64,000 nt of DNA, taken from NCBI GenBank assembly GCA_030167865.1, contig JALAGF010000415.1, positions 1 through 64,000 of the forward strand, in the 5' to 3' direction. This stretch comes from Craspedostauros australis (Eukaryota). The notes beneath the pieces were generated by a model, which was not told where the DNA came from, searched no databases, and worked only from the letters and a program-made list of their open reading frames with translations. Positions 4,097 to 58,500 of this stretch are shown here, piece by piece. Positions within the stretch are counted from its first letter, which is position 1; each line of letters starts with the position of its first letter. Position numbers and translations under genes: made by a program.

Positions 4097-4633
4097 TCAT
4101 ACCCTCCTCTTATTTTTGAGCACATGATACAGAGCTACCGCCAACGTGCCCAGAATGACGGCCGTGACGCAATGAGTCCTCCGCGTCTCTGCTCGCCGCC
4201 GCAGCTGCGCTTGTTCGGCACCTTTCTCGAAGCAATATCGCACCGGCAGGATGACATCCATGGCCTCCTGGATCAATTCCGAGTCGACCTTCATATCCTC
4301 CAACGTGCCACGAAAATGTTGCATGACGATATCGAAATGCCCCGCGTTGAGTCCCTCGTCAAAGAGCCGCGTGTGCCGATTGAGCACGAGCCGTTCCACG
4401 TCGAAGTCTTGCGGGACGTGCGTGAAGGCGATGCTCATGAGGTTGAGGTAGTGCCATTTGAGGATGGAGAGATCGGCGTTGCGGAAGAAGATGTTGAGGC
4501 GCTCGTCCTGGACCTGCCGATCGTAGAACGTCTCGACTGCCTTGGCCAGCACCTCCTTTCCGCCCAGCTTGCTGAGCATGATAGTCTTGCGTCGGTTGGC
4601 GCCGAAATGCAGAATGTCGGTACTTGCGGACAT
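4097..4633 (-). CDS. Group I truncated (2/2) hemoglobin with C-terminal hydrophobic tail
   Basis: KLGG..V..AVETFY (B9-B10 FY), DERLNIFF (CD1 Phe), proximal His in NRHTRL, GLNAGHFDIV..HF..TL. Likely start MSASTD at 4633. Confidence 0.88.
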   Translation of the reverse strand: MSASTDILHFGANRRKTIMLSKLGGKEVLAKAVETFYDRQVQDERLNIFFRNADLSILKWHYLNLMSIAFTHVPQDFDVERLVLNRHTRLFDEGLNAGHFDIVMQHFRGTLEDMKVDSELIQEAMDVILPVRYCFEKGAEQAQLRRRAETRRTHCVTAVILGTLAVALYHVLKNKRRV

Positions 4634-5288
4634 GGTTGCGGTGGATGTACGTAAAATAATATGTGTTCGAGTGGAGCGTGGAGTCCTGGTGTCGTGATTG
4701 CGAATGTGGCTGTGGTTGTGTAACGATCGATAGATGGAGGGATGGAGTGAATGAATGATGTTTGTGATGTCGAGGGACGAAGGAGAGGATGCGATGGTGG
4801 CGATGTTGTGTGGAGTGGTTTCTGTAGGGACACTTCCGCAATGTTGGTGTGTCGGAGATGAACGAGAAGCCATTTGTCAATGAGTTCGCTTTCAGAAGTG
4901 ACGCAATCATTTCACTTCCAGTCTCGCTTCGACTAATATGATCAAGTTCATTCCCGGTTCCGGAATTGTTCTTCTTGTGTGTGTCGTGGAAGAAGAATGT
5001 CGCCCAAGAAGAAAACGTGAACGGGCGAAGTGTCAAGAAACAGATGACGATGAAGAACAACACACGTGTAGTTGCAACAGAGAGGCAGAGGCAGCGCTCC
5101 TGTCCACGTTCGACGCCACTACCGTTTCGGGCACCTCTCTGCAGGCACTCGCATGACCCAACTCCCAAACAGGCACACAATGGAGCAGAAGCAAGAAAGA
5201 GAACAAAAGAAGAGGAGGCTGCTATACCATTGACGCATTATACCATACACGGTCGTACCATACAAAGCGGCTGCTCTAATCTGCACTC

Positions 5289-6805: not shown

Positions 6806-7891
6806 TTACACATCCAACTGCGTGACGCTCCATGGATCGTCGATGTCCGTGCCTGGGATGATCGAGTTCGCGGTGCTGCCGATGCCCGTCGCCTGGAGAT
6901 TGAATGCGAACGACACCCGTGTCAACGATTCGTGCTGGACCATCGGAACTCCATGCAATAACCACGATGGGAATAGCACGACCTGACCTTCTTGTGGATG
7001 CATTGCGACGTCGCCGTCCTCGTTGATGTACTGCAAACTTTCATCATGGTTGCATCGCTCACGCCATGCAGTGTCCGTTAGTCGCTGCGGTCTGCGAAAC
7101 ACCAAGGGAGCGCTGCCTTCCGGAACTCGGGCGTAGTACACTCCGGATACCAACGCATCCGTGTGCACATGATCACCATGATACGCGCCTGCTCCACGTT
7201 GAATGGCTGCCCACATGCAGATATCCAGCATCGATGAAGCATTGTCATACGTCCTATCATCTGGATCGTCTCCAGCGCTCGACAATACCCGAGACAGCGT
7301 CGACTCGAAACCGTATTGTGTCGAAGCATGCTGCTGCTGCGGAGGGCTGATTCCATCCTGCTGACCATCGCCATCGGAACGGAAGGCGTGAGGGTACATC
7401 ATACCCGCAACCTGCTTGGATCTTTGCGTGCCTACATGATGAAGATATGTGGCACACAGCAGCGGCAGCACGTTCTGCTCCAATTGCATGGCGGAGTCGG
7501 ACTGCGCCAGCTGCGACAGGGCCATGCGATATCCACGAATGCGCTGATACTCGAAGAAGTAATCATTGTTCGTGACTACGTCGCCAGCGGTATGGTTGGC
7601 ACCTGTTACTGCAATGCCTTGGTATTTGGTCGTCTGCGGATGTTGAGCTGTTGGCTTCGAATCAGCAAGTGGGGACGCTGACGACGGGCGCTGCCGTTTC
7701 CTTCGGCGGCCTGCGGCTGCTGACGATGGCGGCGACGATGCACGATGCGTCTCGAGGTACTGATCAAAGCCTCGCACCGCCGCATCCGCCAATGTGCCGT
7801 TGGCATCCGTAGACACGATGCCAGACTTGATGAGGTTGGTGGTGGCGACGGGCGCAACGCCCCAAAGGGACCGGAATCCGATGGAATTCAT
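6806..7891 (-). CDS. 2OG-Fe(II) oxygenase (TIGR02466-like)
   Basis: HxH motif YHGDHVH...VSGVYY, PQEGQVVLFPSWLLHGVP, RVSFAFN. First ATG at 7891. Confidence 0.85.
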   Translation of the reverse strand: MNSIGFRSLWGVAPVATTNLIKSGIVSTDANGTLADAAVRGFDQYLETHRASSPPSSAAAGRRRKRQRPSSASPLADSKPTAQHPQTTKYQGIAVTGANHTAGDVVTNNDYFFEYQRIRGYRMALSQLAQSDSAMQLEQNVLPLLCATYLHHVGTQRSKQVAGMMYPHAFRSDGDGQQDGISPPQQQHASTQYGFESTLSRVLSSAGDDPDDRTYDNASSMLDICMWAAIQRGAGAYHGDHVHTDALVSGVYYARVPEGSAPLVFRRPQRLTDTAWRERCNHDESLQYINEDGDVAMHPQEGQVVLFPSWLLHGVPMVQHESLTRVSFAFNLQATGIGSTANSIIPGTDIDDPWSVTQLDV

Positions 7892-13345: not shown

Positions 13346-14008
13346 ATGCATGTCACATGTTGTGAGAATATTGAGGTTGGCACGAGTACCAAATGATACA
13401 TACTTCATATGCATGATAATCCGACTATACAGGCATACGGAGGATATACCACTCGTAGTATCTGCCCGACTTGATCACTACAATAGTCTCTACTGGCTCC
13501 CCAGAAAGAGACACGCAGAGTGCTCTTGACCGTGGTGTTGGTACCACATTATTCGAGCTGCATACCATACATACGTATTGGTCGCGAGGGAGGGGGGGAA
13601 GGGGGTCCATGGAGGACGGACACCGGAAGGTGGCTGCGACGTCTAGCCTCCCCCCGGAGGGAGGATTGCACATCGCAGGTCTGAAGTGTGAATAGTAACC
13701 AGAAGCGGCAACATCGCAGCAATGCAGTTGGGAGTATCGGCGCTGTGTGCTTGTCGCACTCATACTAGCACTCTGATGGATCGGGGGACGGTATTATTCT
13801 TGTTATCCATTTATGTCTTGAATTAACTTATTGTACACTTTACATCAAAGTTGATAGTTGCGGCATCGTTCTGGGAGCCTCGCGATCAGCTCAAAGAATT
13901 AGCACAGCACGGCCGTCGAAGCAGTCGCACCCAACTCGGGTCGCTACTCCCGAAACGAAGGTCAATCGAGCTCGCCGCTTGCTTCAGTTCCAACCTCATG
14001 GAAACCGG

Positions 14009-17000
14009 CTAGCGCTTGGAGCCGTTTCCCTTGCCCTTTCCGCTGGCGGAAGGTGGGCTCGGTCTCTGTGGGAGGTGTGGCGTGATTGGGTTGCTTGGGC
14101 CCGAGGGCGATGATGGTGCGCTTGGTCCAGAGGGTCCGGTTGGTCCGCTCTTGTTACCCTTACCCTTTCCGCTTGGGCCCGATGGTCCACTTGGTCCGGA
14201 AGGTCCGCTTGGTCCAGTGGGTTCGCTTGGGCAGTCAATCTGGACATAGTATGTGATGCAGTCGCTATCGTCGCCGCTTGAGCCGCCCTTGCCCTTGCCG
14301 TTGCCGCTTCCAGTGCACTCGGTGACCTTCTTCAGGCAGTTACCTGGGCCGGATGGTCCGCTTGGTGTAGATGGCCCGCTTGGTGTAGATGGTCCGCTTG
14401 GTGTGGATGGTCCTGGGCAGAAGCACTTGGTGACACAGTTCTCTCCGTCGCTGTCGCACACAACTCCTTCGAAAGTGCAGCCGCTGGGGCATGATCCTGG
14501 CCCACTTGGTCCAGATGGGCCAGATGGTCCGCTTGGTCCTGATGGTCCGCTTGGTCCTGATGGGCCGGTTGGTCCGCTTGGTCCAGATGGGCCGGTTGGT
14601 CCGCTCTTGTTGCCCTTGCCCTTTCCACTTGGTCCTGATGGGCCGGATGGTCCGGAAGGTCCACTTGGTCCGGAAGGTCCGCTTGGGCCTGATGGTCCAG
14701 ATGGTCCGCTTGGTCCAGAGGGGCCGGTGGGTCCGCTCTTGTTTCCCTTGCCCTTTCCGCTTGGTCCAGATGGTCCGCTTGGCCCGGATGGTCCGCTTGG
14801 CCCGGATGGTCCGCTTGGCGTAGATGGTCCTGGGCAAAAGCACTTGGTGACACAGTTCTCTCCGTCGCTGTCGCAGACAACGCCTTCGAAAGTGCAGCCG
14901 CTAGGGCATGATCCTGGCCCACTTGGTCCTGACGGTCCGCTTGGTCCAGAAGGTCCGCTTGGTCCAGAGGGGCCGGTGGGTCCGCTCTTGTTTCCCTTGC
15001 CCTTGCCGCTTGGTCCGGATGGTCCACTTGGCCCGGATGGTCCGCTTGGTGTGGATGGTCCTGGGCAGAAGCACTTGGTGACACAGTTCTCTCCGTCGCT
15101 GTCGCAGACAACGCCTTCGAAAGTGCAGCCGCTGGGGCATGATCCTGGTCCAGATGGTCCACTTGGTCCAGAGGGGCCTGACGGTCCGCTTGGTCCAGAG
15201 GGGCCGGTTGGTCCGCTCTTATTGCCCTTGCCCTTTCCGCTTGGCCCGGATGGTCCGGAGGGGCCGGTTGGTCCGCTCTTGTTGCCCTTTCCGCTTGGTC
15301 CAGATGGCCCGGATGGACCGCTTGGGGTAGATGGGCCGCTGCAGATATCCTCGCATCGGCAAGATCCGTTGTAGAAGTAGCAATCAAGGCATGGGTCGGT
15401 GGTTGTGCATGTGATGCCGGATGGTCCGCTTGGGCTGGTTGGTCCACTCTTGCTTCCCTTTCCGCCGGACCCGCTCTTGTCGCTCTTGCTTCCCTTTGCG
15501 CTGGGTCCACTCTTGTTACCCTTACCACTCGGTCCAGATGGTCCGCTTGGGCCTGATGGTCCGCTTGGGCCTGATGGTCCGCTTGGGCCTGATGGTCCGC
15601 TTGGGCCTGATGGTCCGGATGGAGGGCAGGCGACTGGAACATTGACAAGGACACAATCGTCGCTGTTGCTGCTCTTGTTACCCTTTCCGGAGCTTGATGA
15701 GGTGCATCTGAGCTCCTGCACGAAGCAGCCGCCGCTTGGTCCGGATGGCCCGCTTGGTCCGGATGGGCCAGATGGAGCGCATGGCTCGGTGATGATGATG
15801 GTCACGCAAGTCTCTCCGGAAGTTCCTCCCTTGTTACCCTTACCCTTTCCAGATGGTCCGTTTGGTGTACACTGTTCGACTTCGCGCTGGCAGAGGTTCG
15901 GTCCGCTTGGTCCAGATGGGCCGGATGGTCCCGAGGGTCCGCTTGGTCCAGAGGGGCCGGTTGGTCCACTCTTGTTGCCCTTTCCGCTTGGGCTGCTTGG
16001 CCCGGATGGTCCACTTGGTCCGGAGGGGCCGGTGGGTCCGCTCTTGTTTCCCTTGCCCTTTCCGCTTGGCCCAGATGGTCCAGATGGTCCGCTTGGCCCG
16101 GATGGTCCGCTTGGTCCGGAAGGTCCTGGGCAGAAGCACTTGGAAACACAGTTCTCTCCGTCGCTGTCGCAGACAACGCCTTCGAAAGTGCAGCCACTGG
16201 GGCACGATCCTGGTCCACTTGGTCCAGACGGTCCGCTTGGTCCAGATGGGCCGGATGGTCCGCTTGGCCCAGACGGGCCGGTTGGTCCGCTCTTGTTACC
16301 CTTGCCCTTTCCGCTTGGTCCAGATGGGCCGGATGGTCCACTTGGCCCGGAGGGTCCGCTTGGTCCAGATGGCCCGCTTGGGCCTGATGGTCCTGATGGT
16401 CCAGATGGTCCGCTTGGTCCAGAGGGGCCGGTGGGTCCAGATGGTCCGCTTGGTCCAGAGGGGCCGGTGGGTCCGCTCTTGTTTCCCTTGCCCTTTCCGC
16501 TTGGGCCTGATGGTCCGCTTGGTCCGGATGGTCCGCTTGGCGTAGATGGTCCTGGGCAAAAGCACTTGGTGACACAGTTCTCTCCGTCGCTGTCGCAGAC
16601 AACGCCTTCGAAAGTGCAACCGCTGGGGCATGATCCTGGCCCAGATGGTCCTGACGGCCCGCTTGGTCCAGAAGGTCCGCTTGGTCCAGAAGGTCCGCTT
16701 GGTCCAGACGGGCCGGTGGGTCCGCTCTTATTGCCCTTGCCCTTTCCGCTTGGCCCGGATGGTCCGGAAGGTCCGCTTGGCCCGGATGGTCCGGATGGTC
16801 CGCTTGGCCCGGAAGGTCCTGGGCAGAAGCACTTGGTGACACAGTTCTCTCCGTCGCTGTCGCACACAAGACCTTCGAAAGTGCAGCCACTGGGGCATGA
16901 TCCTGGTCCACTTGGTCCTGACGGTCCGCTTGGTCCAGATGGGCCGGATGGTCCGCTTGGTCCAGAAGGTCCACTTGGTCCAGATGGGCCGGTTGGTCCG

Positions 17001-18466
17001 CTCTTGTTACCCTTGCCCTTTCCACTTGGTCCTGATGGGCCGGATGGTCCACTTGGGCCTGATGGTCCGCTTGGTCCACTTGGTCCGCTTGGTCCAGAGG
17101 GGCCTGACGGTCCGCTTGGTCCAGAGGGGCCGGTTGGTCCGCTCTTATTGCCCTTGCCCTTTCCGCTTGGCCCGGATGGTCCGGAAGGTCCGCTTGGCCC
17201 GGATGGTCCGGAAGGTCCTGGGCAGAAGCACTTGGTGACACAGTTCTCTCCGTCGCTGTCGCACACAAGTCCTTCGAAGGTGCATCCACTGGGGCATGAT
17301 CCTGGTCCACTTGGTCCTGACGGTCCGCTTGGTCCAGATGGGCCGGTTGGTCCGCTTGGTCCAGACGGGCCGGTTGGTCCGCTCTTGTTGCCCTTTCCAC
17401 TTGGTCCGGAAGGTCCGGATGGTCCACTTGGTCCAGATGGTCCAGAAGGTCCGCTTGGCCCAGATGGAGGGCATGGCTCGGTGATGATGATAGTCTCACA
17501 AGTCACTCCAGAAGATCCTCCTTTGTTGCCCTTGCCCTTTCCAGATGGTCCAGTTGGGGTGCAGTTCTGGATCTCGCGTTGGCAGAGGGCTGGTCCTGAT
17601 GGACCGGATGGCCCGCTTGGTCCAGAAGGTCCACTTGGTCCAGATGGGCCGGTTGGTCCGCTCTTGTTACCCTTTCCACTTGGTCCGCTTGGCCCGGAAG
17701 GTCCGCTTGGTCCTGATGGCCCGCTTGGTCCAGATGGAGGGCATGGCTCGGTGATGATGATAGTCTCGCAAGTTACTCCAGAAGATCCTCCTTTGTTGCC
17801 CTTGCCCTTTCCAGATGGTCCAGTTGGGGTGCAGTTCTTGATCTCGCGTTGGCAGAGGGCTGGTCCTGATGGACCAGATGGCCCGCTTGGTCCGGATGGT
17901 CCGCTCTTGTTGCCCTTTCCGCTTGGTCCAGAAGGTCCGCTTGGTCCAGATGGGCCGGTTGGTCCGCTCTTGTTACCCTTTCCACTTGGTCCGCTTGGCC
18001 CAGAAGGTCCGGATGGTCCAGAAGGTCCGCTTGGTCCAGAAGGTCCGGATGGTCCAGATGGAGGGCATGGAACTGGGACCATGACAGTGACACAGTCTTC
18101 GTTGCTACTGTCGGACTTGTTGCCCTTGCCCTTGCCTTTTCCGCTGGATGGAGTGCAGGTTGTCTTTGGCTCCATGCACATACCTGGGCCAGAAGGAGAC
18201 GATGGTTCGCACTCGTCAACGCAAGAGCAGTCCTGTGCGGACTTGTTGCCCTTGCCCTTTCCTCCAGTGCAGGAGCACTTGTAGCAGTTGCTGTAGTAGT
18301 CCCAGTCGTCGCCGCTGCCCGAACCGCTCTTGAGGTTGCGCACAGCACGCTGCACGTTCTCATCGGTGTCTTCGTACTGCGTTCCGATTGGGAACCTGAC
18401 GGTTTCGGTCTCTGCTCTGACTGCAACCGCAGCGAGCAAGAGTGGGATCAGACTAAAGACCTTCAT
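14009..18466 (-). CDS. Large secreted modular protein: (Gly-Pro-Ser)n runs, KGKGNK motifs and Cys-rich modules; putative extracellular matrix/frustule/adhesive protein
   Basis: Uninterrupted 1485-aa ORF from ATG 18466. Signal peptide [21 protein letters not shown] site (RNL, 18332-18340), many GPS triplets, 7 copies of a 6-Cys module and 6 copies of a 4-Cys module. Confidence 0.9.
14090..18065. repeat. Coding minisatellite: 9/18-bp units (GGA CCA AGC / GGA CCA TCN on the minus strand) with larger duplicated blocks
   Basis: Direct reading; the ~90-bp Cys-module sequence recurs near-identically seven times. Confidence 0.95.
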
Positions 18467-21004
18467 CTTGCCGAGCTGTCCGTTGTCTTTTCGATGCTTT
18501 GTTGTTTGTAAAGAACGATTCAATCTGTGATGGGATGAAGTTCGTCCCGATTTGTTGCATTAGGTTCAGTCGAAATGAAAATGTGATTGTATTGGTTGTG
18601 TCGGTGTCGTCCAGCGCGCGAGTGCAGGTTTCACGTTCATGTCCATGTGTATTCGAATGTCGGTGTTGGCGGGGTGGGTGGGTGCGCGTTTGGAGAAGTT
18701 GGGCAAGTTGGAGGGAACCGGTTCAAAAATTGAGATGGGGGTGGGGATCAAGATTCATGTATTGCCATTTGGGCGCCAAAGAAGCATCACAGAGCCGTCA
18801 TGGATTCGTCCATCAGCCAACAACACCGCAGCAGCAGAGCCTCCGGCTTTGGAAGCCGCCCACCACCGCGACGACGTGTCCATCGATGGTTCCAGTTGCA
18901 AGTCACCGGCGCATGTCCTGCCCTCCTTCTCGCGCGCATCATGGTCTCAGGGACTTGATGTTCGTTTTGATGACGGCAAGGCAGCTGGTGTTGCTTCTGG
19001 TGTCCACGGAGGTCATTGCAGTTGTCCTTGGTGGTGGCGTCATCAGTGTTGTTGGTCTTGCTGCTGCTCTTGGCGCTGGAGAGATGGCGATGGACGCCGA
19101 CAGATGGATCATGCCATGGCCCAAGTGTCGGTGCTGCGCTTCGCCTTGGTTGCTGCCTTTCCTCACGTTGTGTAGTGTCGTACCTGTCCGGAAAGATGAT
19201 TGGAATGTTGCTGGTTGCTCCAGAAGTCGCTTTCGCCGTTTATGAGATGATGGGGGCTGTGCGTTTGGTGTTCAGCCTCTGTTGTGTTGTGTGATTGTGA
19301 GCACATGGAGATCATTTCATGATCTCTCACAAAGTTGGGGGGAAACCAAGAGCAAAGCGCAGTGCGCACTGTGGACAAACTCTGTCCTTGGTGGTGCTCG
19401 TCCACCCTTCGAGCCCTCCCATACTTGCACGACCTCCGTTGGACCAAGTGTTCCATTCGTTGGATGAAATTTTTGTTTGTTCGTCGGCTGCACAAGAATG
19501 AAAAACAGACCCATGTGGAAGCAGTCAGGCAGGGGCATTCTTTTGAAAATGGACGGTTATTCTCAGAGTCACTGTGCTAGTTAATAGGTAACGGCTGGTC
19601 CTTGCGACTTTCATATCATTTCCGTTTCTCGACGTTCGCTCCACGCAGCAGTCGGTTCACTATGAAGGACTCTTGGCTACTAAAGTCGCAGTTTCACCGC
19701 AATTCTGTTCAGCGGAGTGCACCATGCGAGAATGTCCGTGCGCACCCGCCCTGACCTGCGTTTTTTGGCCATAATTTTGACATGCAAGCCTGATCACAGC
19801 CGTAACCACCACACCTCTGTGACGGTCCCCACATACTCGCAACGATGTCGCTCAGAGTGCGCAACCCCAACATTGGAGGTTGAGAGGGACGGCAGTCTTG
19901 CCGTTTCGCCATGAATCTTTTCTTCTAACGGCAGTGTGGGACAATGAGAAGCAGGTGCCCAGCTCAGAACAGCATCGCACACTCCGTTGACACAGCCAAC
20001 GGCAATGCTCATTGGAGTCAAACAGAACTTCTGGTCGTGCCGACCAGCTGCGCGCAGTATGGCGCTGCGCACCAGTTAGAGTATGGTAACGCCTGTCGCT
20101 GCTTGGTTCTTGTTTCGTTCGTGTGAAGAGAAACGCCGAGCACCAGAGAACCCCAACACGCTGGGCGAAGCGCCCAACACGGCACTGACAGGTCGGAGAT
20201 AGGCACAATCGGCACAACAACGGGAACGCTTGCAAGAATCGCCTGTTTGCCGCCACTAATCATCGCTTCTCTCTTCCTCCCTTGGTTCCTCGCCTTTTTT
20301 TTTTTCTTGCGTTTCGCCCACTATCGCTGCGTGAGTGGTTGCCGTTCGTTGGACATTCGTGGACGTTCGTTGGAAGATGCTCCCATCTCACGGGATCGAG
20401 GCATTCACGAACGACTAGATTCCCACCGAGCGTTTGTGGAGAAGAGATGCGCGTGATGTGTGGTGGCAGAGCCTCGCAGGGCCATTCACGTGCCGACCCA
20501 TCAAAAGACGGTGGTGATGGGTTCTTGAGGTGCCCGCACTCGTACCTGCGCGCAGGGCGTTCTCTGGTGCAGTACTTGGTTCCTTCTCGCCTCCCTTTCT
20601 TCCTTCTCTCTTGTCTTCATGGTAACGTCTCTCTCCTCTTGTGATCGGCTGTTGGTGGGCAGCGATGACACCTCTTTCGCATCTCATTGGAGTGAAGATG
20701 GAGGCAGTACCAGCAGCCGCATCAATCGGATAGTATGTGTGGTAACAGCCGTATCTAGCAGCAGCAACAGTCGCGACAGGAACAACAATGACTGCAACGG
20801 CAGAATCACCATCTTCCTGACTCGCGCGACCTGCAAATGTGCGATGCTTCACTCTCAGAGACGGTGACCGCCTGCTCTTCCGCACCATCACTGATGTCTC
20901 CATGCTGATGCAATGCAACATCAAACCTGAGCGATCTCGCGATCAATTTTGGTACTACTATTGGTGGAGAGGCATCGTTGCAGCAACTTCCACCGCGGCC
21001 GATC

Positions 21005-21580
21005 ATGGAATCGAGGCTTCTGCTCTCCAAACTCACGCCGATGAAGCCCATCCTCTGCATCGTTACACGTGCGGACGGGCAGATCGGCAGCGCGCTGAGC
21101 GATGCGTATTTGGGATACGCGACGCCGTTGCAAACTGTGATGGTGCCATCGGGCCCGCTGTCGGTGGAAGATGCAGCCCCATCGTCAAGGATGACGGAAC
21201 CTCAGGAGGTGTCTCCGCGAATTGTGGCATCCATCGAGCCCATCATTCAAGAGCATCGGCCGGGAGCAATCGCATTCGGCCTTCCGCTGAAACGCTACGG
21301 CAAGCAGCCGCATTTGCAATCGGCGAAAAACTGCGAGGCCACCCTATTTTGCGGACAGAAACTACTTCGTCACGATTGGTCAGTGCCACTGAGATGCACG
21401 ATTGAGACGCAGCTTTCTTTGGCAGAAGCGAGAAAGCGGAAGGAGACGGAATGGGAAATGTGGGAGGAGATCGATCTGTCTTCCGACGATTGCGCGGATG
21501 ATCCATCCATCGCCGCGGCTATATCCTTGAACGCCTGGCTATGGGAACATTGTGGTGGATGGCGCAACACGTTTGGTTGA
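21005..21580 (+). CDS. YqgF/RuvX-like (RNase H-fold) protein, divergent active site
   Basis: Pattern ILCI...IGSALSD...ATPL...IIQEHRPGAIAFGLPL...ETQLSLAEA...DDPSIAAAISLNAWL matches the YqgF secondary-structure order. First ATG at 21005. Confidence 0.7.
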   Translation: MESRLLLSKLTPMKPILCIVTRADGQIGSALSDAYLGYATPLQTVMVPSGPLSVEDAAPSSRMTEPQEVSPRIVASIEPIIQEHRPGAIAFGLPLKRYGKQPHLQSAKNCEATLFCGQKLLRHDWSVPLRCTIETQLSLAEARKRKETEWEMWEEIDLSSDDCADDPSIAAAISLNAWLWEHCGGWRNTFG

Positions 21581-22885
21581 GACCGCAGCAGCGGGCGGTG
21601 ACTCACGTCGCATGAACACTCTTGTCGAATAGATTACAGCAGCTTGACTCTTCCATGCTCGGCACCACCACCAGCATCAGCAGCAGCAACGAGCACTCCA
21701 TAATCTTCCGTGAGGGTAGTGCCACAATAAAATAGAGCAGAGTACCATGCATAGAGTTGAGCCGATTACTCTTGGTTAGTATGGAGTAGCATCCATGCTT
21801 TGGAGAGAGAGAGAGAGAGGGCTTGGCATGGCATGGATTGGACAGCGAACACGAGAGTATTTGCATGGTGGTGTCGGGGCACATAGTAATAGAAGTAAAA
21901 CTTCGATTGAGAGGGCCTGGGTGAACTGAAGTAAGAGCCAAGAGAGGAGCGGCATCCAATGTGACGCACTACAGAATCCATACGACTAGTGATTTCCCTC
22001 CGGTACATGGCCTACGTGAGACGTCTCGGTGAGAGGCGCGGCATCATATCATACCAACATGCTCGTACCAAAGATACCTCTTTGCTGGTACTGTGATCCA
22101 TGCCACATGAGCTGTCGTGACATGTTGAAGGACAATCCTCCTCTGATCCACACCAACCGATTAACCGTTGAAGAGCGACATCCGATAAGTGTTGGCGAGA
22201 GCTTTGCAACGGAGTTGCGTGTAGTCCCCGCATTCTGCTGAATGGAATGGGAACGAAGACGACAGACGTCGAGCAAATGCGCGGACTGGAGTAGGCAGAG
22301 AACAGAGCGGGGTTCTCTGCTTGCAAGTGATCCTTTGTGGAGCAACGTTGAAACGATAGTTGATGATATGGGGATAGACAGACAAGGAGGATAACAGTAT
22401 TTCTATCGTGAGTAGAGTATGAGTACTCGTATGTAGATCACTAGTCGTGGTATAGATTGATTACAGACTTGGTTGAAGAATTAGATTGGGAGCGCATGAG
22501 TAGGTATGGAACAGATATCAGCCGGGTAGTGTTGATGCCGCTTCCGCTGCACGCCGCCGAGGACCGTGGTAGCCAAGAGACAAGGTTCAACCCGGCCACA
22601 CGAGAAGAGAACCAGATCAGCGCCGCTTCTCCATGAACGTGACGATGAAGGGTCTGTCTCTCTCTTCAGGGTACCAACAGAGAGTACTCGTATCGCGATG
22701 GATGAGAGGTGGCGACCAGGACAGGATCGCCAATGCGTCCTGTAGTCCGCGTTCTTCAGGGAGGGGGCATAATGATAGAGAGCATGCCAGAGTCCGGGCG
22801 CAGAGATGCGGCAGTCCTCTTACGGCCGTATATTGAGCGCAGAGGTGACGCATTGGTGGATGTGCACGATTCGTCTGCTGCAGCG

Positions 22886-23338
22886 TCACTGTTGCTGTTG
22901 TCGCTGTTGCTGTCTGGCAAGTTCAACAGCGGGTGGCGCGTCAATTGATGGCTGGTTGGAGGAATGCAGACTCTCGCTGCTTGTGCACGCGGCGTCATCC
23001 GAGGCGATGTCGATTGCCTCTTGGAGGATGGACATGAGGTCCACCACTTGCTCGTGCTCCGAACGGACTTCACGGCGGCCCATCTCGCTCGATGTGCTGG
23101 AGCTGTTGAGGTAGGATGGACATACGTGGTCTACCAATGATGATCCGCGCGAAGCTGACAAGGCCAGGATCGCGGGATTCATACCTGATAGCGTCGTGGT
23201 ACGGCGTTGCGTCGTCATCGCCAGCCTCAGGCCAAGATCTACTGAGCGGCGACGCTCTTGCCGTTGCATCCACGAAAGCTGTCGAGGACCGCTTGCTCGT
23301 GTCACCAGTTGCGGTTTGGAGTGATTGTTGGCTGTCAT
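22886..23338 (-). CDS. Small hypothetical protein, 150 aa
   Basis: ATG-initiated ORF with Ser/Gln-rich composition and a helical segment (VVDLMSILQEAIDIAS). No family recognised. Confidence 0.35.
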   Translation of the reverse strand: MTANNHSKPQLVTRASGPRQLSWMQRQERRRSVDLGLRLAMTTQRRTTTLSGMNPAILALSASRGSSLVDHVCPSYLNSSSTSSEMGRREVRSEHEQVVDLMSILQEAIDIASDDAACTSSESLHSSNQPSIDAPPAVELARQQQRQQQQ

Positions 23339-26323
23339 TGCTTCGTTGAGTTATTTCTTGCTGTTCCTGTTGTTACGATTGCTGTCGTGACGGTTGCTGT
23401 TGTTACGATTGCTGTTTCCGTTTCTGTTGTTGCTCCTTGCAGTTTTATGGTGTGATGCCTAATGGTCCTGAAGGAAGCGAGTTGAAGTGTGGTGATCCAC
23501 AAGAACACAAGAACGAAGGAAGTGGTTGGATACGATCGATAGTACGGTGTACGCCACACATGTAGGCCCACCTCTTTTGTTAATGCTGCTGTTGTCCAAC
23601 TACCGCAGAGGATGGTGTGGTATGGTACCCTGATGTCGATGTTCCTTCGTGTGGCGTGTCAAGGTTTGTGTTGCACAGCGCCAGATGTGCGAGTTCTGTA
23701 CCTTGTCAGTTGGGTAGGAAGCGCGAGGGGTGACTCTCCTCGGGGTTCGGAAGCGCCAGAGGCCAGAGGGGAACAAGGTAGTGAATTTGTGAGAGGAGCG
23801 AGGAATCTTGTGGCGATCGGAAACGCTTTGTGCGAAGCAGAAACACGCAGCGTCGCAATCGACAACAAAGACGATTGTACGTGCGCAACCATCCATAGAT
23901 GTTGTTGTCATTGCTGGCTTCGACAAAGTGTCAAGACTCCTCTCTTGGGACGGAAACAGGAGAGCTTCCTTGGGTTCTTGGCCGTTGCGTCTCGCCACAC
24001 AGGTACAATCGAAGGCGGGCAGTGACAGACGGTTGGGTGGGATATGCACATGGAAAAGTCAGAAACCGCAACACATGGCAACAGCAAAGCCCCTCAGAGC
24101 GAAATCGCCTACTATACCTTTGGGGTCTCGTTTGCGGCTGGGGCAGTGGTTCAGCCCGGCCATTCGGGAGTGGATGGGAGCAAGCATCTCCAACATGGCC
24201 CGCAAGGAGAGTGAACCCACGCAACTTGGAGCAGGGAACGTACCAAACCGGCACTGTGAGGAACATGGGATGGCACGATGCCAGCAGAGCGAAGGAAGAC
24301 GGAATAGGGTGCTCTGGTGCCACCTCGCACGAACTAATTGATTGATGCATTGGACCAGCGTTCTTCGCACAGAGAAGAGTTTGCGTGTGCCGGCACCACC
24401 AGTCGCTATTTTGTGGAAGCAACAGAACTTGATCTTCTGTGATGCAGAAGACTTGCGTGTTTGTTCGAAATGCTCATCACAAGTGACCATGTCAGTTTGC
24501 GACCAAAACATTATGTATCAGTCTTGAGGTGACACGCCTCGAAAGCGTAACTGCTGGAAGCGTCAGAAAATAAGTCGTTTGTGCGCACGTCAACGAACCA
24601 CAGCACGCAATTCTTACCCCTCAACGCCAACAGTGACGTGTCCTACATCGCACGTCCGCATACTCGTGATTGACATTTGCGACGAACGCCGAACCCATTC
24701 AGAAGCTGCGCGAACCAATCGCGGGCGAGGACGTCATCGCGCGTGGCGCCATGGAAGATGGAGGCGAGGTTGTCACAAGAGTGAAGGCAACAAACACGCA
24801 CGAGTACTCTGCCACCAACAGAGGGACAATCCGAACCGTCGCATTCACAGACTCTCTGTACCTTGGTGTTTGCATCGCGTGAGTAGCATCAGGTTTGGCG
24901 CTGCTGGTACATCGGCTGCATGGCGCAATTCTGTTAGTAGTCTGCGTGCCAAAGTTGGCCGTCGAAAGACGACTCTTTTCTGTGGCCTGCACAACCACAG
25001 CACCATACCAATACGGGAGGCTCCTCTCTCCACTTGCGTAGGCATTGCTGTATGACCCCGTTCAGATGGTTCGTTGCTGGACCGAGCTCATTGCGTTTGG
25101 ACATGCTTCGGTGTGTGTTGAATAGTACGCGGCCCTCATCAATACTCTACCAGACCTTCGTCCTTTCCACGGAGGAACTTATTCTTTCATCGCTTTTGCG
25201 AAATCATCAGTCCACAGGAGTGCTGACAACATCCAAAAGACAGCAGGCGTGATCGGTAAGGTTGGGAGGTGCTACCGAGTATAGAGCATGGTATGCGCGC
25301 ATGTATGGTACCATACCTACCATACGTACTCGTGGATCAGCAGCGTCGATTACGTACCATACGCTCGCAGCGACATGCGATACTTACGTCCACCCTCCCG
25401 ATCAAGAAGGCCAGGTAGCAAAGTTGGTGACACAAACTTTGGCCAAAAGAACTATCCCTCAAACCGCGTCTCGTCCGTGATCAAAGTGCCCCATTGCTTC
25501 GCTTTTCTTTGGGCGCCACATGGAGCACGCCTGGTGAAAGTTGTTCCGAGAGGCAGTGATCTCTGGCGACCATTGCCCGTGGCAATACCGAGTGAACCAC
25601 CCTTCTCTTTCCACATTGCCCACTCCGCATCCTGTTGGGCATGGGTGCGAGCCAACACGATACTCACGTCAAACCATACCACACCCACCACCTCCCGCAA
25701 GTTGGGCAACGGTCTCTTCGCACAGAATATAGATTTCTGCGTCGACGGCCCTTTTGTGCCCAAATCACACATCACTCACCTCCGGAGGAACAAGTTCGGA
25801 TTGGTGTCTCCCCCCCAGTCCATCCCTCCCAATGTCGAACTTTGGTGTCGACCCTTGTCTTCGTCATCACCATCGTCACCTTCGCTTGTTGCGATGACAG
25901 GCGCTCAAGCGCAAGGTGTCATCGCATTGGTGGACGCAGTCGTGAGTCCCACCCACTTCGGCCGCGGGACCCATTTTAGTCGCTTTAGTCGTACATGGAC
26001 CGTCTCCAAAGTATCAAAGGTGTCGAGGACGATCGCCAAAAGGCACACAAATAGCGAGCGCGCGAAGACGAGTTCACGGCACGGCTGAATCTGGTGTCAC
26101 ATTTTCACGATGGCGACATGCGCAACTCGGTAAACACAACCGCTGCTGTCCACGATGTTGGCAGTTTTGCGATCGTGGGCAGTCCTGCATCGCATTCCAT
26201 CACAATCGCCGAAGGTGTTCATGTTGAGGCAGAGGGGGGAAAGAGAGAAAGGGAGATCGTATTCATCACAGGAGCCTTGAGGAGGATACCCATCGCATGC
26301 TGCACGGCATCAAGTGGACAAGG

Positions 26324-40299: not shown

Positions 40300-42907
40300 T
40301 TAAAATGGATCGTCGACGACCTTCTTGCAGCTCGTGCAACATGCAGGCTTTTCGCACACAAATCCAGGCTGCCCGTTTCGTGCGCAGGTGGCAATGAAAC
40401 GGGACAGCTTTCCATTTTGGCGCAAATCGCAAATCGACAAAGGCGCGGCTCCCGTGAATCTGTTGCCATTGATGGCCATCGTCTCCAGGTTGGCCCATTT
40501 GCCCAAGGCATCTGGAAGCGTTCCTGTGAACTGGTTGTCCTGCACCTGGAATCGAGTGAGATTCCACAGCTGACCCAATTCGCTCGGGATGTTGCCGGTG
40601 AGCTTGTTGTCATTGAGGGCCAGAAAGACTGTATATTTGCCCAAAGCCATGAGAGTGTTGCATTTTGTTGTTGGATGGTGCGTTGGTGTCAGCGAAGCAA
40701 ATGCAAGGGGAGAGAGAGAGAGAAAAGTCAGTACTTGACGATAAACGACGCGGTCGCAGAAACATGTACTTGCGCATGCAGTTGATGGCTGCCAATCGAA
40801 TGAAATCAGTGAAGCCATGACCGATCCAACAAATCAGTCGATGAAGCGAGGAGCTCTTTGCCACGTGTGCAGCAGTGTGCGCAACATATCGCCAACGAAG
40901 CCAAACTTACACAAATTCGAAAGCTTGCCGATCTCGGAAATGAGCGGCCCCTGGAAGTTGCTGAAACCAAAGTCGATACGTTCGAGACTGGTCATAAGCG
41001 CGATCTCGGTTGGGATGAAACCGCCCAAACCAGATCCTGAGAGGCGGAAATCGCGCAGGTTCCACAGCAGCCCAAACTGGGACGGCACGGCGCCTCGCAT
41101 CAAGTTGTCCTGCAGACGCAAGGTCTCAAGAGAATCCATGCGTCCAAACTCGGATGGCAAGGGACCCGAAAATGAGTTTCCTGCCAGGGTGAGGTATTTG
41201 AGCTTCTTCATGTTGCCCCATGCCGCTGGCAGGTGGTTTCGAAAGAGGTTGAAGCCGAGATTCAGGTCTGTCAAAGCAGTGAGGTTGCCGACTTCGCTGA
41301 CGACGGATCCGAACATGAAGTTGGTTTCTAGGCGAAGACTTTCGAGCTTGCTTGCCAAACCGACCTCGGTGGGGATCCTTCCTGTCAACCGATTTGAGTA
41401 CAAGCGCAGCTCCTGCAGGCGTGGCATTGAGAAGAAGTGCGTCGGGATGGTTCCGGTCAGATGGTTACGGGTGAGGGAAATCGCCGCCAGGCCCACAACC
41501 CTGGTGATTTCGGTTGGAATCTGTGATTGTGTTGACGTTGACGTTGGTGGAGGCGGAGACAGATGGATGAAGGTGGATAGAAGGCGGCGGCGAATGATTC
41601 AGAGTGTAAGCGCGATGAACATGGGTTGGTAAAGAGGATGATTGGCAAGCGCACCACCAAACAAGCAAACTGAACGACAAACAAACAAGCAGACGGGTGA
41701 CACTTACCAGACCGAATATATTGTTGGTGTCGACTGACAGGGAGTTGATGGCATCGCGGTTGTTGCACTGCACGCCCAACCAAAGACATTCGTTGAGGTC
41801 GGTCAACCAACCGTCGGTGTAATCCCAGACAGTTCCGTTGAGCGCGAAGTACAAGGAGGCCAAAGAGAAGCGCTGGCGGATCTCACCGGCGTCGCGGTTG
41901 TCGCCCGATGCGAGCCAGATGAGACCGAGGTTGTTGGGTTCGCAGGACTGGGCGTCCAGGGTGTAGTTGGCGTCATCGATGTATATCTTGGGGAATAGAC
42001 GTTGGACGATGAGCTCTCGCATCTGGAGGACGTCGCGTGGGAGGGTGGTGATCTTTTGGAAGCAGAAGCACTGGTCGAAGACGTGCGGGAATCCGTCCTG
42101 GTCGGCCATGTCGCAGTTGTTGTCGACGGGCGCCATGGTGGAGGTGATGATGCCGGGAGCGATGACGATGTCGTCATCGTAGTAGAAGTCGTCGTCCGTG
42201 TCGTCGATGAAGGGCGCGAAGGTGGGCGCTGGGGTGGGCTTGACCTTGTCGTCGTCGTCGGTGAGGGCCAGGAGGAAGACGATGAGCACGATGATCCAGA
42301 TGAGGAGGCAGCACAGGAGGAGCAGGCAGCAGCACCAGGCGCGGCGGCGTCTCGCGCGGCGCTTGCGCTCCTCCTCGTCCATGACCTCCTCGAAGGCGGG
42401 CTCGTCCTTGGGCATGGACTCTCTGGAGACGAAGCTGCGCTGCGACTCGCCGTAGTAGCTGGAGTCCATGTTCCGCGGCACGGGGTTGCCATTCTCGTCG
42501 TACTCCGTGGGTGCCTCGCTGAACTCGTCGCTGCGCATGGAGGGATCGTGCCTGTCGTCGTAGCCCTGTCCGTCGTAGCCGTCGTTGTAGCCGCCAGCGG
42601 CGCCGGAGGCGTCATCGCGGTAGCCGCTGTGGCGGGACGAGGCGTTGGACTGGGAGTGCATGTCGTCGTCCGGGCGGCCGCTCATGTAGGATTGGTCGTC
42701 GTAGGGTTGCTGCGACTCGTCGTAGCTGCGCGTGCTCTGGGCGCCATCGTCCATGTAGCTCTGCTGGTCGTAGGTCTGGTCATCGTCGGTGTACTGGGTG
42801 TTGTCGTCTCCGCGGTAGGAGTCCTGGCCCTGCGCCTGGCTGCCTCCGTAGTACGACGGATCGTCCTGGTAGTAGCTGTCGTTGGAGGAGGAGTAGCGGG
42901 ACGACAT
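40300..42907 (-). CDS. Type II single-pass LRR receptor-like protein (no kinase), 3 exons
   Basis: Exons 42907-41708, 41520-40911 and 40628-40300; introns GTAAG..CAG join in frame (NIFGL|IPTEI; SNL-F-FLALNDNKLTG). Acidic N-terminus, RRRR, CCC + TM, PT stalk, ECLWLGVQC cap, plant-type LxxNxLtGxIPxE repeats, C-terminal Cys cap. Confidence 0.88.
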
Positions 42908-55590: not shown

Positions 55591-58500
55591 ATGGATGAGG
55601 AAGCACACGGCGGTGGCCATGCCCCCAGTTCCTCAGCAGAGCAGCAGCAACAGCAACAGAAGAAGAAGGGCTCCAGATCCGGCTCAAAGACGCGAAAGAA
55701 GTCGCGGAAGAGCAGCTCCTCCACACCCCAGACGGACGAACACAGCATGATGAGCGACCCGCAAGCGACGCAGGGCGACGACCGCGACGCCCTCTCGCAC
55801 ACTCCCAACGAAGCTGACGCGGACAGCACCCTCCTTCAATCACCGGTGTCCCCATCCTCCAGAGCGAACGGATCCAAATCGTCGCACTCCTCGAGGAACA
55901 GAAGGAAGACCAGAAAGACGAGCACCAACGACACCGACGGCAAGCCAAAGTCAAAATCGAAACGAAGGACCACCAGGTCGGCTGTACTTGATGCTGACGG
56001 CGCCAGCAAGGGCGGCATGAGCAACAGCGGCAGCGCCAACGGCAGCAGAGGACGCAGATCTCACAAAAGCCCAAAGCGCTCGGCCAAGACCAACGGCCAA
56101 CTCAGTCCCAAGAAGCCGCGCAAGTCTGCGGCCTCCGCCCAAACCAACGGCAACAATGGCGACGCGACCTCCCTCGCGTCATCCAAACCCATGTCGGTGT
56201 CCCCCTTGCCGTCTCCCTCGCCGGCCAAGTCCAACCCACGCGGTCGGCAACTTCCAGAGGGATTGAAGCTCATCACGGTGCCTTCCCAGGAGAACATCGA
56301 CCTCAACTACGACAACGACAGCGACAGCGACGAACTTGAATATCCTTCCCGAACGCCCCGCGGATTGGGCAGAACAGATGGTAAGAATGAACAGCAGGGA
56401 CAGCAACAGCGACGGCGACAAGCAGAGACAATGATAGACACACATACGACGATACAGACACAGCCAGAGACAGCGACAGCGACAGCGATAGATAGACAGG
56501 GAGAGAGACAGGCAGACGCACACACACTGACACCCAACATGACACATGCGCATCCACATGCACAGACAAATATAAGTACAGATGCACAGATACAGCCACC
56601 AATACAAAGGCGAAAGCAGGAACCGAGAGAAGACCATGAACAGGAGCAAAGTTCGGAACCACCTCGTGCACATGCAAGCAAACCGCAGGAGCTGCACTTC
56701 GACTCGTCGGCAACAGACACTACGAGACCAGCATCCATATCGACATCCATATCAGCATCCATAGTGACATCCATAGTGGCATCGCCTGCCATCAACCATC
56801 GCACCACCAACACCAGCACCACTCGCATCACGATGACAGGGCAGGTTCTGGAAATCCACGGTCCTGCACCGCTGCCACAGCGCAGGTTTTCGCAGGAGCA
56901 AACACCACCACGACCACAATCACGCTCGCTATCGCAAACGCAAACACTACCAAGGACACAACAACATCATCAACAGCAAAACGGTCACAGCCAGAAAAGT
57001 AAGACAGACATCATGTGCAACATTGAAGACAGCGACAACCATCATGATGGCCTTGGTATTGGCAACAACGACGTCAATGCCAGCGCCAGTGCCAATGATG
57101 CTGGCAGGAACAAAGACCACCCAGCAATGTCACCAGTCAACCACACCAACTTCGTACACATTCCACTTCCGCGACTCCCTTCCCCTCCTTCCACAAAACC
57201 GCCTCATAATGGACACAACGGGCGTCCCCCTCCACCTTCACGCCCACCACCACTACCTCACCAACATCAGCAGCAGCAGCAGCAGAAGCCACACCACCTT
57301 CCTCCGACTTCGACTCCAACTCCATCTTCTCCTTTCAAACACACGACAATCTCATCGACACATGCGGCTCAATCTCAACCAACCGCAAGCAATCAACCAC
57401 CATCGTCACCGCCATGTCCGTTGCCATTCAACATGCAACCACGCAGCGCCAGCGAACGGGTTACATCACAGAAGACATCCATCGCAAACGCATCCGACAG
57501 CTCGAGCACACACCAGTCCTTGTCGGTACGATCCGTGCATGTCACGAATCACCAGAAGTACAGAGCCAAGTACAGCGCCATACCGCACTCCAGTTATCAC
57601 TGCCCCGAGCCCTACGCGGATGACGACTATCCGCTGGCAGCTGGGCAACACATGCACACCTTCTTGCAGCATTCGGCTGGTGCGGGCGATAGCGACCGCA
57701 TTGGCGGCAACGACGGCGAAGACAATGACGACGACTGCGATGACGAGGAGCTGGAGGAAGAGTCGATGGCTGTGTCCTCCATACACCATTCTTTCACCGA
57801 TGGTGGCACGACCAGCGCTGGTGAAACCATCAGCAGCGGGAGTAGCAGTGGCAGCTTCAGTGAAGATTACGCGATCACTGATAGTGACAGCAGCTACGAC
57901 AGCGGCGTGGACACTGCCACAGGCACTGGCACGGGTACCGATACTGCCGCCAGCATGCTTGGCAGCGCATACTCCCAAAGTGGAACTGGGACCGATAGCG
58001 ATAGCGACAGCAATGTCGGTACTGACGCTGACACTGATACCGAGGCTGGCGCCGATTCTGAGACAGGCGCTGACACGACGTCGCGAGGTGATGACCGCAA
58101 GAGTCATGGTGGCAGCCAAAGCAACAGCAGCGACGGTAGCAGCAGCGATAGCGATGAGGATGTTTCTGTGGACTTCATGGCCAAATCGCAATCACGGTCC
58201 ATCTCCAGATCACGCTCTGGACGTCTTCGTGGCAACGACCAAGGCTACGGCCAAACCCCATCCCTGGATGAGGAGGAAAGCATGTCATCATCGTTCAACA
58301 CTGCTCTGTTCGCCAAGGCCATTCATACCGACTACGATCACGTTGATCGTAAATCGCGCTTTGATCCCACAGCTGGGTACAACTCGTTCTCGTCCTTCTC
58401 GCAATTTGCCGCGGCAGACGACAGCCATTCGAAACCTCTCATACATTTCATGCCTCTCTCTCCTTCTGCCACTTCTATCACAAAACGCAACACCGGTCAC

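Follow-up and report, generated by a model that had tools for sequence, protein, structure and literature searches.

A GPS-repeat gene on the Craspedostauros australis contig

The window analyzed here comprises the first 64,000 nucleotides of contig JALAGF010000415.1 (forward strand) from the genome assembly of the diatom Craspedostauros australis (GCA_030167865.1). A sequence-only reading of this window had drawn attention to a long Gly-Pro-Ser (GPS) repeat protein, which it proposed as a candidate matrix or adhesive scaffold. Inspection of the locus revealed an uninterrupted open reading frame (ORF) on the minus strand at 14009-18466, a single exon of 1485 amino acids plus stop, which begins at the earliest ATG of its open frame, 31 codons after a stop. 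The encoded protein is rich in Gly (25.1%), Ser (21.2%), and Pro (20.3%), followed by Lys (6.0%), Cys (5.3%), and Thr (5.0%), so that Pro, Thr, Ser, and Gly together account for 71.5% of the sequence; Trp occurs once and Tyr eight times among the 1485 residues. This GPS-repeat ORF is a real gene, as indicated by the way its repeats vary.

Comparison of the 216 GP[ST] units disclosed variation at codon positions 3, 6, and 9 and none at positions 1, 2, 4, and 5. The units comprise 32 distinct 9-mers, and Ser is encoded both by AGY (85) and by TCN (112); variation is thus restricted to third codon positions and to the AGY/TCN switch of Ser. The same tendency appeared in two Cys-rich modules, A and B, that recur along the protein and are described below. 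Among the seven copies of module A (21 pairs), 95 synonymous codon differences were counted versus 16 non-synonymous ones, giving proportions of synonymous (pS) and non-synonymous (pN) differences of 0.256 and 0.013, a ratio of 0.05, and the three close copies of module B gave a pS of 0.318 and a pN of 0.065. Because the variation among repeats is overwhelmingly synonymous in the minus-strand frame, this frame is coding and under selection.

That the locus is instead a non-genic, GC-rich minisatellite, open by chance in several frames, is extremely improbable: plus-strand ORFs of 956 and 372 amino acids are likewise G-P-X, Tandem Repeats Finder reported 53 rows of arrays, and the exact protein is missing from a collection of 15 billion proteins, but only the minus-strand frame starts with an ATG and a signal-like peptide and stays open throughout the 4.46 kb, the pN/pS of 0.05 among its repeats contradicts this explanation, and in the antisense frame the same variation alters the third residue (L/D/E/V). 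The two antisense ORFs, at 15414-18284 (+) and 14256-15374 (+), respectively, consist of Gly-Pro-X repeats. They were rejected as genes because their variable residue corresponds to the wobble position of the sense strand; they represent the reverse-complement mirror of the GPS codons and have no signal-peptide start.

One contig of 665 letters from a sequencing run was identical to 13800-14450, and eight short pieces from the same run, whose RNA nature is only a guess, fell in the repeats, leaving the rest of the gene uncovered. Compared with 10 neighboring ORFs, the gene shows a stronger codon bias, with AAG at 97%, AAC at 91%, and GAC at 85%. NCG codons are avoided, as CCG, TCG, and ACG reach 4, 2, and 5% compared with 29, 28, and 38% in the neighbors, and the GC content at third codon positions (GC3) is 0.50 compared with 0.57-0.79. 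Such a bias would be in keeping with high expression of a native gene; the low NCG and GC3 values could result from selection on translation, a bias imposed by the repeats, or a separate history.

Modular architecture of the predicted protein

The N-terminal features that had been read from the sequence held up on closer inspection. A signal peptide is indicated both by eye and by hydropathy, since the highest 19-residue windows all begin at residues 1-5. It is followed by the short acidic stretch (residues 19-45, with six Asp or Glu and three Lys or Arg), and the RNL that ends this stretch, at residues 43-45, is the sole R-x-L of the whole protein. The absence of a transmembrane (TM) anchor was likewise borne out, as there is no second hydrophobic segment and the C-terminus is hydrophilic and hence bears no TM or glycosylphosphatidylinositol-like tail. 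In contrast, the proposal of a zwitterionic polymer was not supported; the part of the protein that follows RNL carries 95 Lys and Arg versus 63 Asp and Glu and is hence net cationic.

Runs of GP[STA] triplets occur 30 times, each with 3-18 triplets, and total 218 triplets or 654 amino acids (44% of the protein). When any Gly-X-Y triplet is accepted, in runs of at least three, 31 runs of 3-19 triplets cover 741 of the 1485 residues (50%); five of these runs reach at least 12 triplets, and the other 26 are shorter. Every Gly-X-Y run stops at a break, and the register is interrupted at each Lys motif and each Cys module. The earlier description of approximately 1440 amino acids in strict Gly-X-Y register was therefore overstated, and the register fails across the Lys motifs because GKGKGNKS, with its eight residues, moves the Gly register by two, while GKGNKS, with six residues, preserves the length and places Asn at a Gly position. 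Pro stands mostly before Ser within the protein, with 240 PS dipeptides compared with only 5 SP and 12 TP.

The punctuation of the runs by Lys motifs and discrete Cys modules was confirmed. Strict (GK)nGNK[SG] motifs number 24, distributed among 12 GKGKGNKS, 8 GKGNKS, 3 GKGKGNKG, and a single ten-letter form, and 16 of them are directly followed by GPT. The first reading overlooked that 21 of the 24 contain an N-K-S sequon; of the 25 N-x-S/T sequons in the protein, 21 are accounted for in this way. This observation suggests that N-glycosylation may be as important to the motif as its lysines. Similarly, 24 of the 27 KxxK occurrences are KGNK, whereas KGSK appears only twice, at residues 991 and 1003, eight residues apart.

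All 78 Cys residues are positioned inside discrete modules, each with an even Cys count of four or six: one N-terminal module, six copies of module B, seven copies of module A, and one module C (Table 1). Alignment of the module B copies revealed four Cys with spacing 6-20-8 and a Lys motif in the loop. Module A contains six Cys with spacing 3-6-6-3-1, its copies share 95-100% identity with the first one, and it directly adjoins Gly-X-Y runs. Single-sequence AlphaFold2 models placed a two-strand hairpin in every module modeled (A copy 7, B copies 4-6, and C). Averaged over 10-residue blocks, the predicted local distance difference test (pLDDT) score was 82-87 where a block held an A or C hairpin, 50-78 where it held a B hairpin, and below 50 over most GPS-rich stretches. 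These hairpin predictions are shallow and only suggestive.

A low-stringency Pfam scan gave a sub-threshold match of module A (17204-17317, minus strand) to Toxin_29 (PF08116), at 17.4 bits versus a cut-off of 25 (E 0.0044 for a single protein). Toxin_29 is a family of small cystine-rich spider peptides. Membership was rejected, since the match lies below the cut-off and probably reflects mere resemblance in Cys spacing to small cystine-knot peptides.

Table 1. Features of the GPS-repeat gene and its predicted product (positions in the window).
Feature	Position	Strand	Basis or remark
Whole coding sequence	14009..18466	-	1485 aa + stop, single exon, first ATG of frame
Signal-peptide-like N-terminus, residues 1-18 (MK, 14 hydrophobic, VRA)	18413..18466	-	sequence, hydropathy maximum
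Acidic stretch, residues 19-45, candidate propeptide, ends in RNL (18332-18340)	18332..18412	-	putative cleavage
N-terminal module, 6 Cys, spacing 2-1-13-1-3, GKGKGNKS embedded	18209..18286	-	sequence
Module B copy 1 (4 Cys, 6-20-8, Lys motif in loop)	18065..18178	-	alignment
Module B copy 2	17741..17854	-	alignment
Module B copy 3	17471..17584	-	alignment
Module A copy 1 (6 Cys, 3-6-6-3-1)	17222..17296	-	alignment
Module A copy 2	16823..16897	-	alignment
Module A copy 3	16556..16630	-	alignment
Longest unbroken Gly-X-Y run, 19 triplets, 57 aa, residues 665-721	16304..16474	-	sequence
Module A copy 4	16130..16204	-	alignment
Module B copy 4	15779..15892	-	alignment; predicted beta-hairpin
Module B copy 5, divergent, 6-16-8	15626..15727	-	alignment; predicted beta-hairpin
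Lys/Ser/Gly-rich spacer, residues 987-1010; sole KGSK region, highest Lys density	15437..15508	-	sequence
Module C, single copy, 6 Cys, spacing 5-2-6-1-3	15341..15409	-	predicted hairpin, pLDDT 84-87 per block
Module A copy 5	15065..15139	-	alignment
Module A copy 6	14834..14908	-	alignment
Module A copy 7	14417..14491	-	alignment; predicted beta-hairpin, pLDDT 82-86 per 10-residue block
Module B copy 6, divergent, 6-18-8	14231..14338	-	alignment; predicted beta-hairpin
Hydrophilic Pro/Ser-rich C-terminal tail, residues 1450-1485, no anchor	14012..14119	-	sequence, hydropathy

Searches for relatives and the neighboring genes

Pfam analysis of the whole protein returned Collagen (PF01391) alone, at 103.5 bits versus a cut-off of 27.2 and over six stretches, a match that is largely compositional. 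In a full-length word search, 591 of the 8000 proteins scored reached E ≤ 0.001, the best at 249 bits. PF01391 was present in all 120 matches listed, and the top ten displayed 30-42% identity over 19-58% of the query. These proteins were rejected as relatives, as the matches are compositional and collagen-like; no characterized counterpart came up, in line with the first reading. The C-terminal 164 amino acids, in a near-length word search, gave nine matches, and the six inspected align only at GP[ST] runs. In the PDB, searched by sequence, only collagen-like peptides and BclA (1wck, E 1.6e-08) were retrieved, all over the GPS part, with the Cys modules unmatched.

Searches that targeted the less repetitive parts yielded no relative. 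Residues 1322-1417, which contain modules A and B, gave no match in a word search against longer proteins, which is weak evidence. An exhaustive profile search with the six module B copies against 1.84 billion representatives returned nothing at E ≤ 0.001, the profile of 45 positions being short for a library of this size and module A not being searched in this way. Metagenome scans gave 150 pattern matches for module A and 72 for residues 19-137, none of which was confirmed, and two queries of the ESM Atlas produced no usable match. Foldseek found nothing at E ≤ 0.001 for a 96-residue model with a mean pLDDT of 64.6. The low-stringency Pfam scan covered five pieces (one module A, one module B, module C, residues 19-137, and residues 1322-1417) and gave sub-threshold matches only, none of them to CAA (PF20597).

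A literature search of open-access papers and preprints found no diatom protein with Gly-Pro-Ser runs in collagen register. The combination of features singled out by the first reading accordingly stands without a counterpart in the sequence and literature searches, although the alternation of Cys-rich with Pro/Ser/Gly-rich parts was already known. Orphan status here means that no relative was found, and is not proof that none exists.

The neighboring genes are ordinary eukaryotic ones. Pfam identified PRP38, DnaJ, SAP-domain, MnmG/GidA, P450, RING, and leucine-rich repeat (LRR) proteins, together with PqiA and DUF6824, the latter of which we take to be diatom-restricted, the literature search having given no confirmation. 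The PRP38 neighbor has an exact match in the 15-billion-protein collection, with JGI, UniRef, and MMETSP sources. Along with the housekeeping character of the neighbors and the DUF6824 match, the MMETSP source is in keeping with a diatom origin. The region at 18560-25280, a stretch of approximately 6.7 kb upstream of the GPS gene, contains no ATG-started ORF of at least 250 amino acids and only short stop-to-stop frames, and is unusually gene-poor relative to the rest of the window. At 6806-7891 (minus strand), a 361-amino-acid ORF matches the putative 2OG-Fe(II) oxygenase family PF13759 at 72.5 bits, along with a weak, sub-threshold match to 2OG-FeII_Oxy_3; it is located about 6 kb from the GPS gene, with two unrelated genes between them. 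An oxygenase close to a Pro-rich secreted protein is at most suggestive.

Two further ORFs, at 41465-42907 (minus strand) and 55591-59823 (plus strand), have no Pfam match and by eye share a TM stretch followed by a conserved Cys-containing region ending ...NECLWLGVQCNN... An LRR ORF at 59847-61127 (plus strand) starts 24 bases after the second. Judging from these features, 41465-42907 and 55591-59823/59847-61127 look like paralogous LRR receptor-like genes, one of them perhaps split by a short intron. A 258-amino-acid ORF at 4097-4873 (minus strand) has a marginal match to the bacterial-like globin family PF01152 (23 bits versus a cut-off of 21).

Candidate roles of the GPS protein

The explanation that we prefer, and to which we assign about an even chance of being correct, is that the product is a lineage-restricted structural protein of the extracellular matrix or cell coat, secreted, heavily glycosylated, and stapled by disulfides. 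Such a protein would enter the endoplasmic reticulum via its signal-like N-terminus, and the acidic N-terminal stretch would perhaps be removed at RNL. The Cys modules would fold as disulfide-stapled knots, acting as rigid nodes or cross-linking points, while the GPS runs would form extended, polyproline-II-like spacers. The adjacent Pro and Ser residues in the PS dipeptides are likely sites of hydroxylation or dihydroxylation and of O-glycosylation, as in diatom wall and adhesive glycoproteins rich in Pro, Thr, and Ser (PTS-rich). The Lys motifs could provide N-glycan sites (N-K-S) as well as cationic patches that bind anionic polysaccharide or silica. Together, these parts would give an extended polymer, coated with glycans and capable of disulfide cross-linking, akin to mucins or hydroxyproline-rich glycoproteins.

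What we observe are sequence features, from which we infer secretion, cleavage at RNL, disulfides, and all of the modifications, and we commit to neither a frustule coat nor a secreted mucilage. From the sequence-only reading, a secreted and modular protein, possibly processed and disulfide-cross-linkable, agrees with the sequence, whereas the strict register, the zwitterionic character, and the silaffin and minicollagen specifics do not.

A first resemblance in kind is to the adhesive proteins of C. australis itself. With alternating Cys-rich and Pro/Thr/Ser/Gly-rich parts in a secreted-type protein, the GPS protein has the organization that defines mucin-like proteins, a descriptive class and not a homology family. 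CaFAP1 is described as having alternating PTS-rich and Cys-rich domains and as resembling mucin-like proteins, and CaTrailin3 as having repeats with six conserved Cys (bioRxiv 10.1101/2023.03.06.531300). Like CaFAP1, CaTrailin4, Ca5609, and CaTrailin3, the GPS protein is secreted in type, highly repetitive, and modular, with Cys-rich modules that alternate with P/S/T/G-rich stretches. The crude adhesive is reported to contain 22% Ser, 18% Gly, 12% Thr, and 17% dihydroxyproline, a total of 69% (bioRxiv 10.1101/2023.03.06.531300), and the 71.5% of Pro, Thr, Ser, and Gly found here falls within the 69-78% given there for Ca5609, CaTrailin4, and this material. The architecture is unusual, while the alternation of Cys-rich with Pro/Ser/Gly-rich parts in secreted diatom proteins is of a known kind.

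A second comparison is offered by the TLP-4 glycofibrils, in which glycans are reported on dihydroxyproline and adjacent Ser or Thr within tetrapeptide repeats (PMC11725842). Both have linear repeats in which Pro stands right beside Ser or Thr, and the authors relate the TLP-4 repeats to diatom proteins and adhesive trails. The glycofibril repeats differ in their period of four and in exceeding 600 consecutive amino acids in the representatives described (PMC11725842). The GPS protein, in contrast, has a period of three (PSG), runs of at most 18 GP[ST] units, Cys modules, and Lys motifs, and contains no long P[ST]xx or [ST]Pxx tetrapeptide array of the TLP-4 type.

Several observations weigh against a glycosylated mucin-like matrix protein. 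The repeat unit is a strict tripeptide in which every third residue is Gly, the exact signature of collagen, and Pfam Collagen scores well above its cut-off. The CAA, GDPH, and vWA domains of the adhesive proteins were not found with Pfam, GDPH to our knowledge not being a Pfam model. The plant-type Ser-Pro/Thr-Pro context for hydroxylation is absent, because SP and TP are so few. By description, the C. australis adhesive proteins differ from the strict Gly tripeptide and the Ser-rich, Thr-poor (5%) composition seen here, and the PTS-rich diatom proteins compared are either Thr-rich or built on a tetrapeptide period. Finally, the codon bias could also stem from repeat-driven composition.

The collagen signature leads to the principal alternative, namely that the protein is truly collagen-like, a "poly-minicollagen" in which three chains associate and each GPS run folds as a short triple helix. 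Knots formed by the Cys modules would hold the chains in register and link them through disulfides, the Lys motifs would introduce flexible or kinked breaks, and a covalently networked fiber or sheet would result. The Gly at every third position across the 31 runs, the Pfam Collagen match over six stretches, and module A set directly against the runs all fit this arrangement. The nearest solved sequence is BclA, which aligns over its GPT repeats only. A triple helix is chemically plausible but unproven for the GPS runs, by analogy with bacterial collagen-like proteins, which are reported to favor Pro at X and Thr at Y and to fold without hydroxyproline (PMC8968730).

BclA, which is glycosylated (PMC8968730), shares near-homopolymeric triplets of Gly, Pro, and a hydroxy amino acid with the GPS protein. 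It differs in having one continuous collagen-like region, a stable C-terminal domain, and Thr at Y, whereas the GPS runs carry Ser at Y, are broken by Lys motifs and Cys modules, and are followed by no such domain.

The run lengths can be read in both directions. Minicollagens are reported to manage with 12-16 Gly-X-Y triplets (PMC4863159), a length that five of the 31 runs attain and 26 do not. The Lys motifs further disrupt the register, through the shift introduced by the eight-residue form and the Asn that the six-residue form puts at a Gly position, and no recognizable trimerization domain was detected by Pfam, including the low-stringency scan of the five pieces, a role that the Cys modules might fill. 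The context of animal 4-hydroxylation, X-Pro-Gly, is missing as well, because Pro precedes Ser and not Gly.

Nor was the proposed minicollagen design borne out. Minicollagens are described as having 12-16 Gly-X-Y triplets flanked by polyproline and Cys domains of the form CX3CX3CX3CX3CC (PMC4863159); the spacings here are 3-6-6-3-1 (A), 6-20-8 (B), and 5-2-6-1-3 (C), and neither a polyproline stretch nor a single central run of 12-16 triplets is present among the 31 runs of 3-19 triplets. The GPS protein does share with cnidarian minicollagens short Gly-X-Y runs set between small domains of six Cys, a charged N-terminal propeptide, and a design implying disulfide polymerization (PMC4863159). 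However, minicollagens are short chains with one central run, whereas the chain here has 1485 residues and many runs, and the lineages are unrelated. The likeness is an analogy, not membership. On balance, we consider a poly-minicollagen unlikely. The most far-reaching form of the idea, a newly designed collagen outside animals, bacteria, and viruses in which about thirty short (Gly-Pro-Ser)n triple helices lie between disulfide knots, themselves unrelated to the minicollagen domains, on one diatom chain and build a covalent extracellular network, maybe interfacing with silica through the Lys/N-glycan motifs, appears quite unlikely.

If the protein belonged functionally with the silaffins or cingulins of the biosilica matrix, it would be processed at RNL, carry polyamines on Lys and phosphate on Ser, and template or coat silica. 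The protein shares several traits with silaffins, silaffin-like proteins, and cingulins: the signal-like peptide, the single RNL after an acidic stretch, its 27 KxxK, and 21% Ser, to which the K/S/G-rich stretch at residues 987-1010 may be added. RXL processing and KXXK clustering have been described for silaffins, cingulins, and frustulins (PMC4557024), and silaffins, silaffin-like proteins, and cingulins are not expected to be conserved in sequence (PMC4557024; PMC5501833). The differences are that the Lys motif here is KGNK, that half of the protein is collagen-register GPS, and that 78 Cys are arranged in modules.

The silaffin-like reading stands as far as the signal peptide and the RXL site are concerned, and fails on the motifs that distinguish these proteins. 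Silaffin-like screening is described as requiring K[SG][SG]K to recur at distances of 1-6 residues (PMC5501833), whereas a regular-expression test for this pattern was negative, the only two KGSK lying eight residues apart. There is no pentalysine cluster (five Lys within 12-14 residues), as no 14-residue window holds at least five Lys, and Lys reaches only 6.0% overall. Just 20 of 1386 100-residue windows combine K ≥ 10 with S ≥ 18, the threshold of silaffin-like screening. Cingulins are reported to alternate KXXK regions with Trp- or Tyr-rich regions (PMC4557024), and with a single Trp and eight Tyr, the GPS protein has too few of these residues for domains of the cingulin type. Moreover, because 21 of the 24 KGNK precede Ser and thereby form N-K-S, N-glycosylation is possibly the real reason for the motif. 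A role in the biosilica matrix is, in our judgment, very unlikely.

Of the three specific analogies, two do not pass the tests that define them. The glycoprotein, poly-minicollagen, and biosilica readings are not mutually exclusive. A secreted, glycosylated matrix or coat protein nevertheless remains our preferred explanation.

Diatom walls and mucilages contain material rich in hydroxylated proline, Gly, and Ser, for which few protein backbones are known. At present, the GPS protein is another orphan secreted repeat protein, known from its sequence alone. The gene provides a concrete, cloneable candidate for such a backbone, one of unusual regularity that allows separate tests of the GPS runs, the N-K-S/Lys motif, and the two kinds of Cys hairpin. 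If the runs prove to be glycan-coated monomers, the idea of the repeat glycoprotein would be extended to a tripeptide period. If they form triple helices, a protist would have converged on a minicollagen-like design, and the protein would be of use as a building block for materials.

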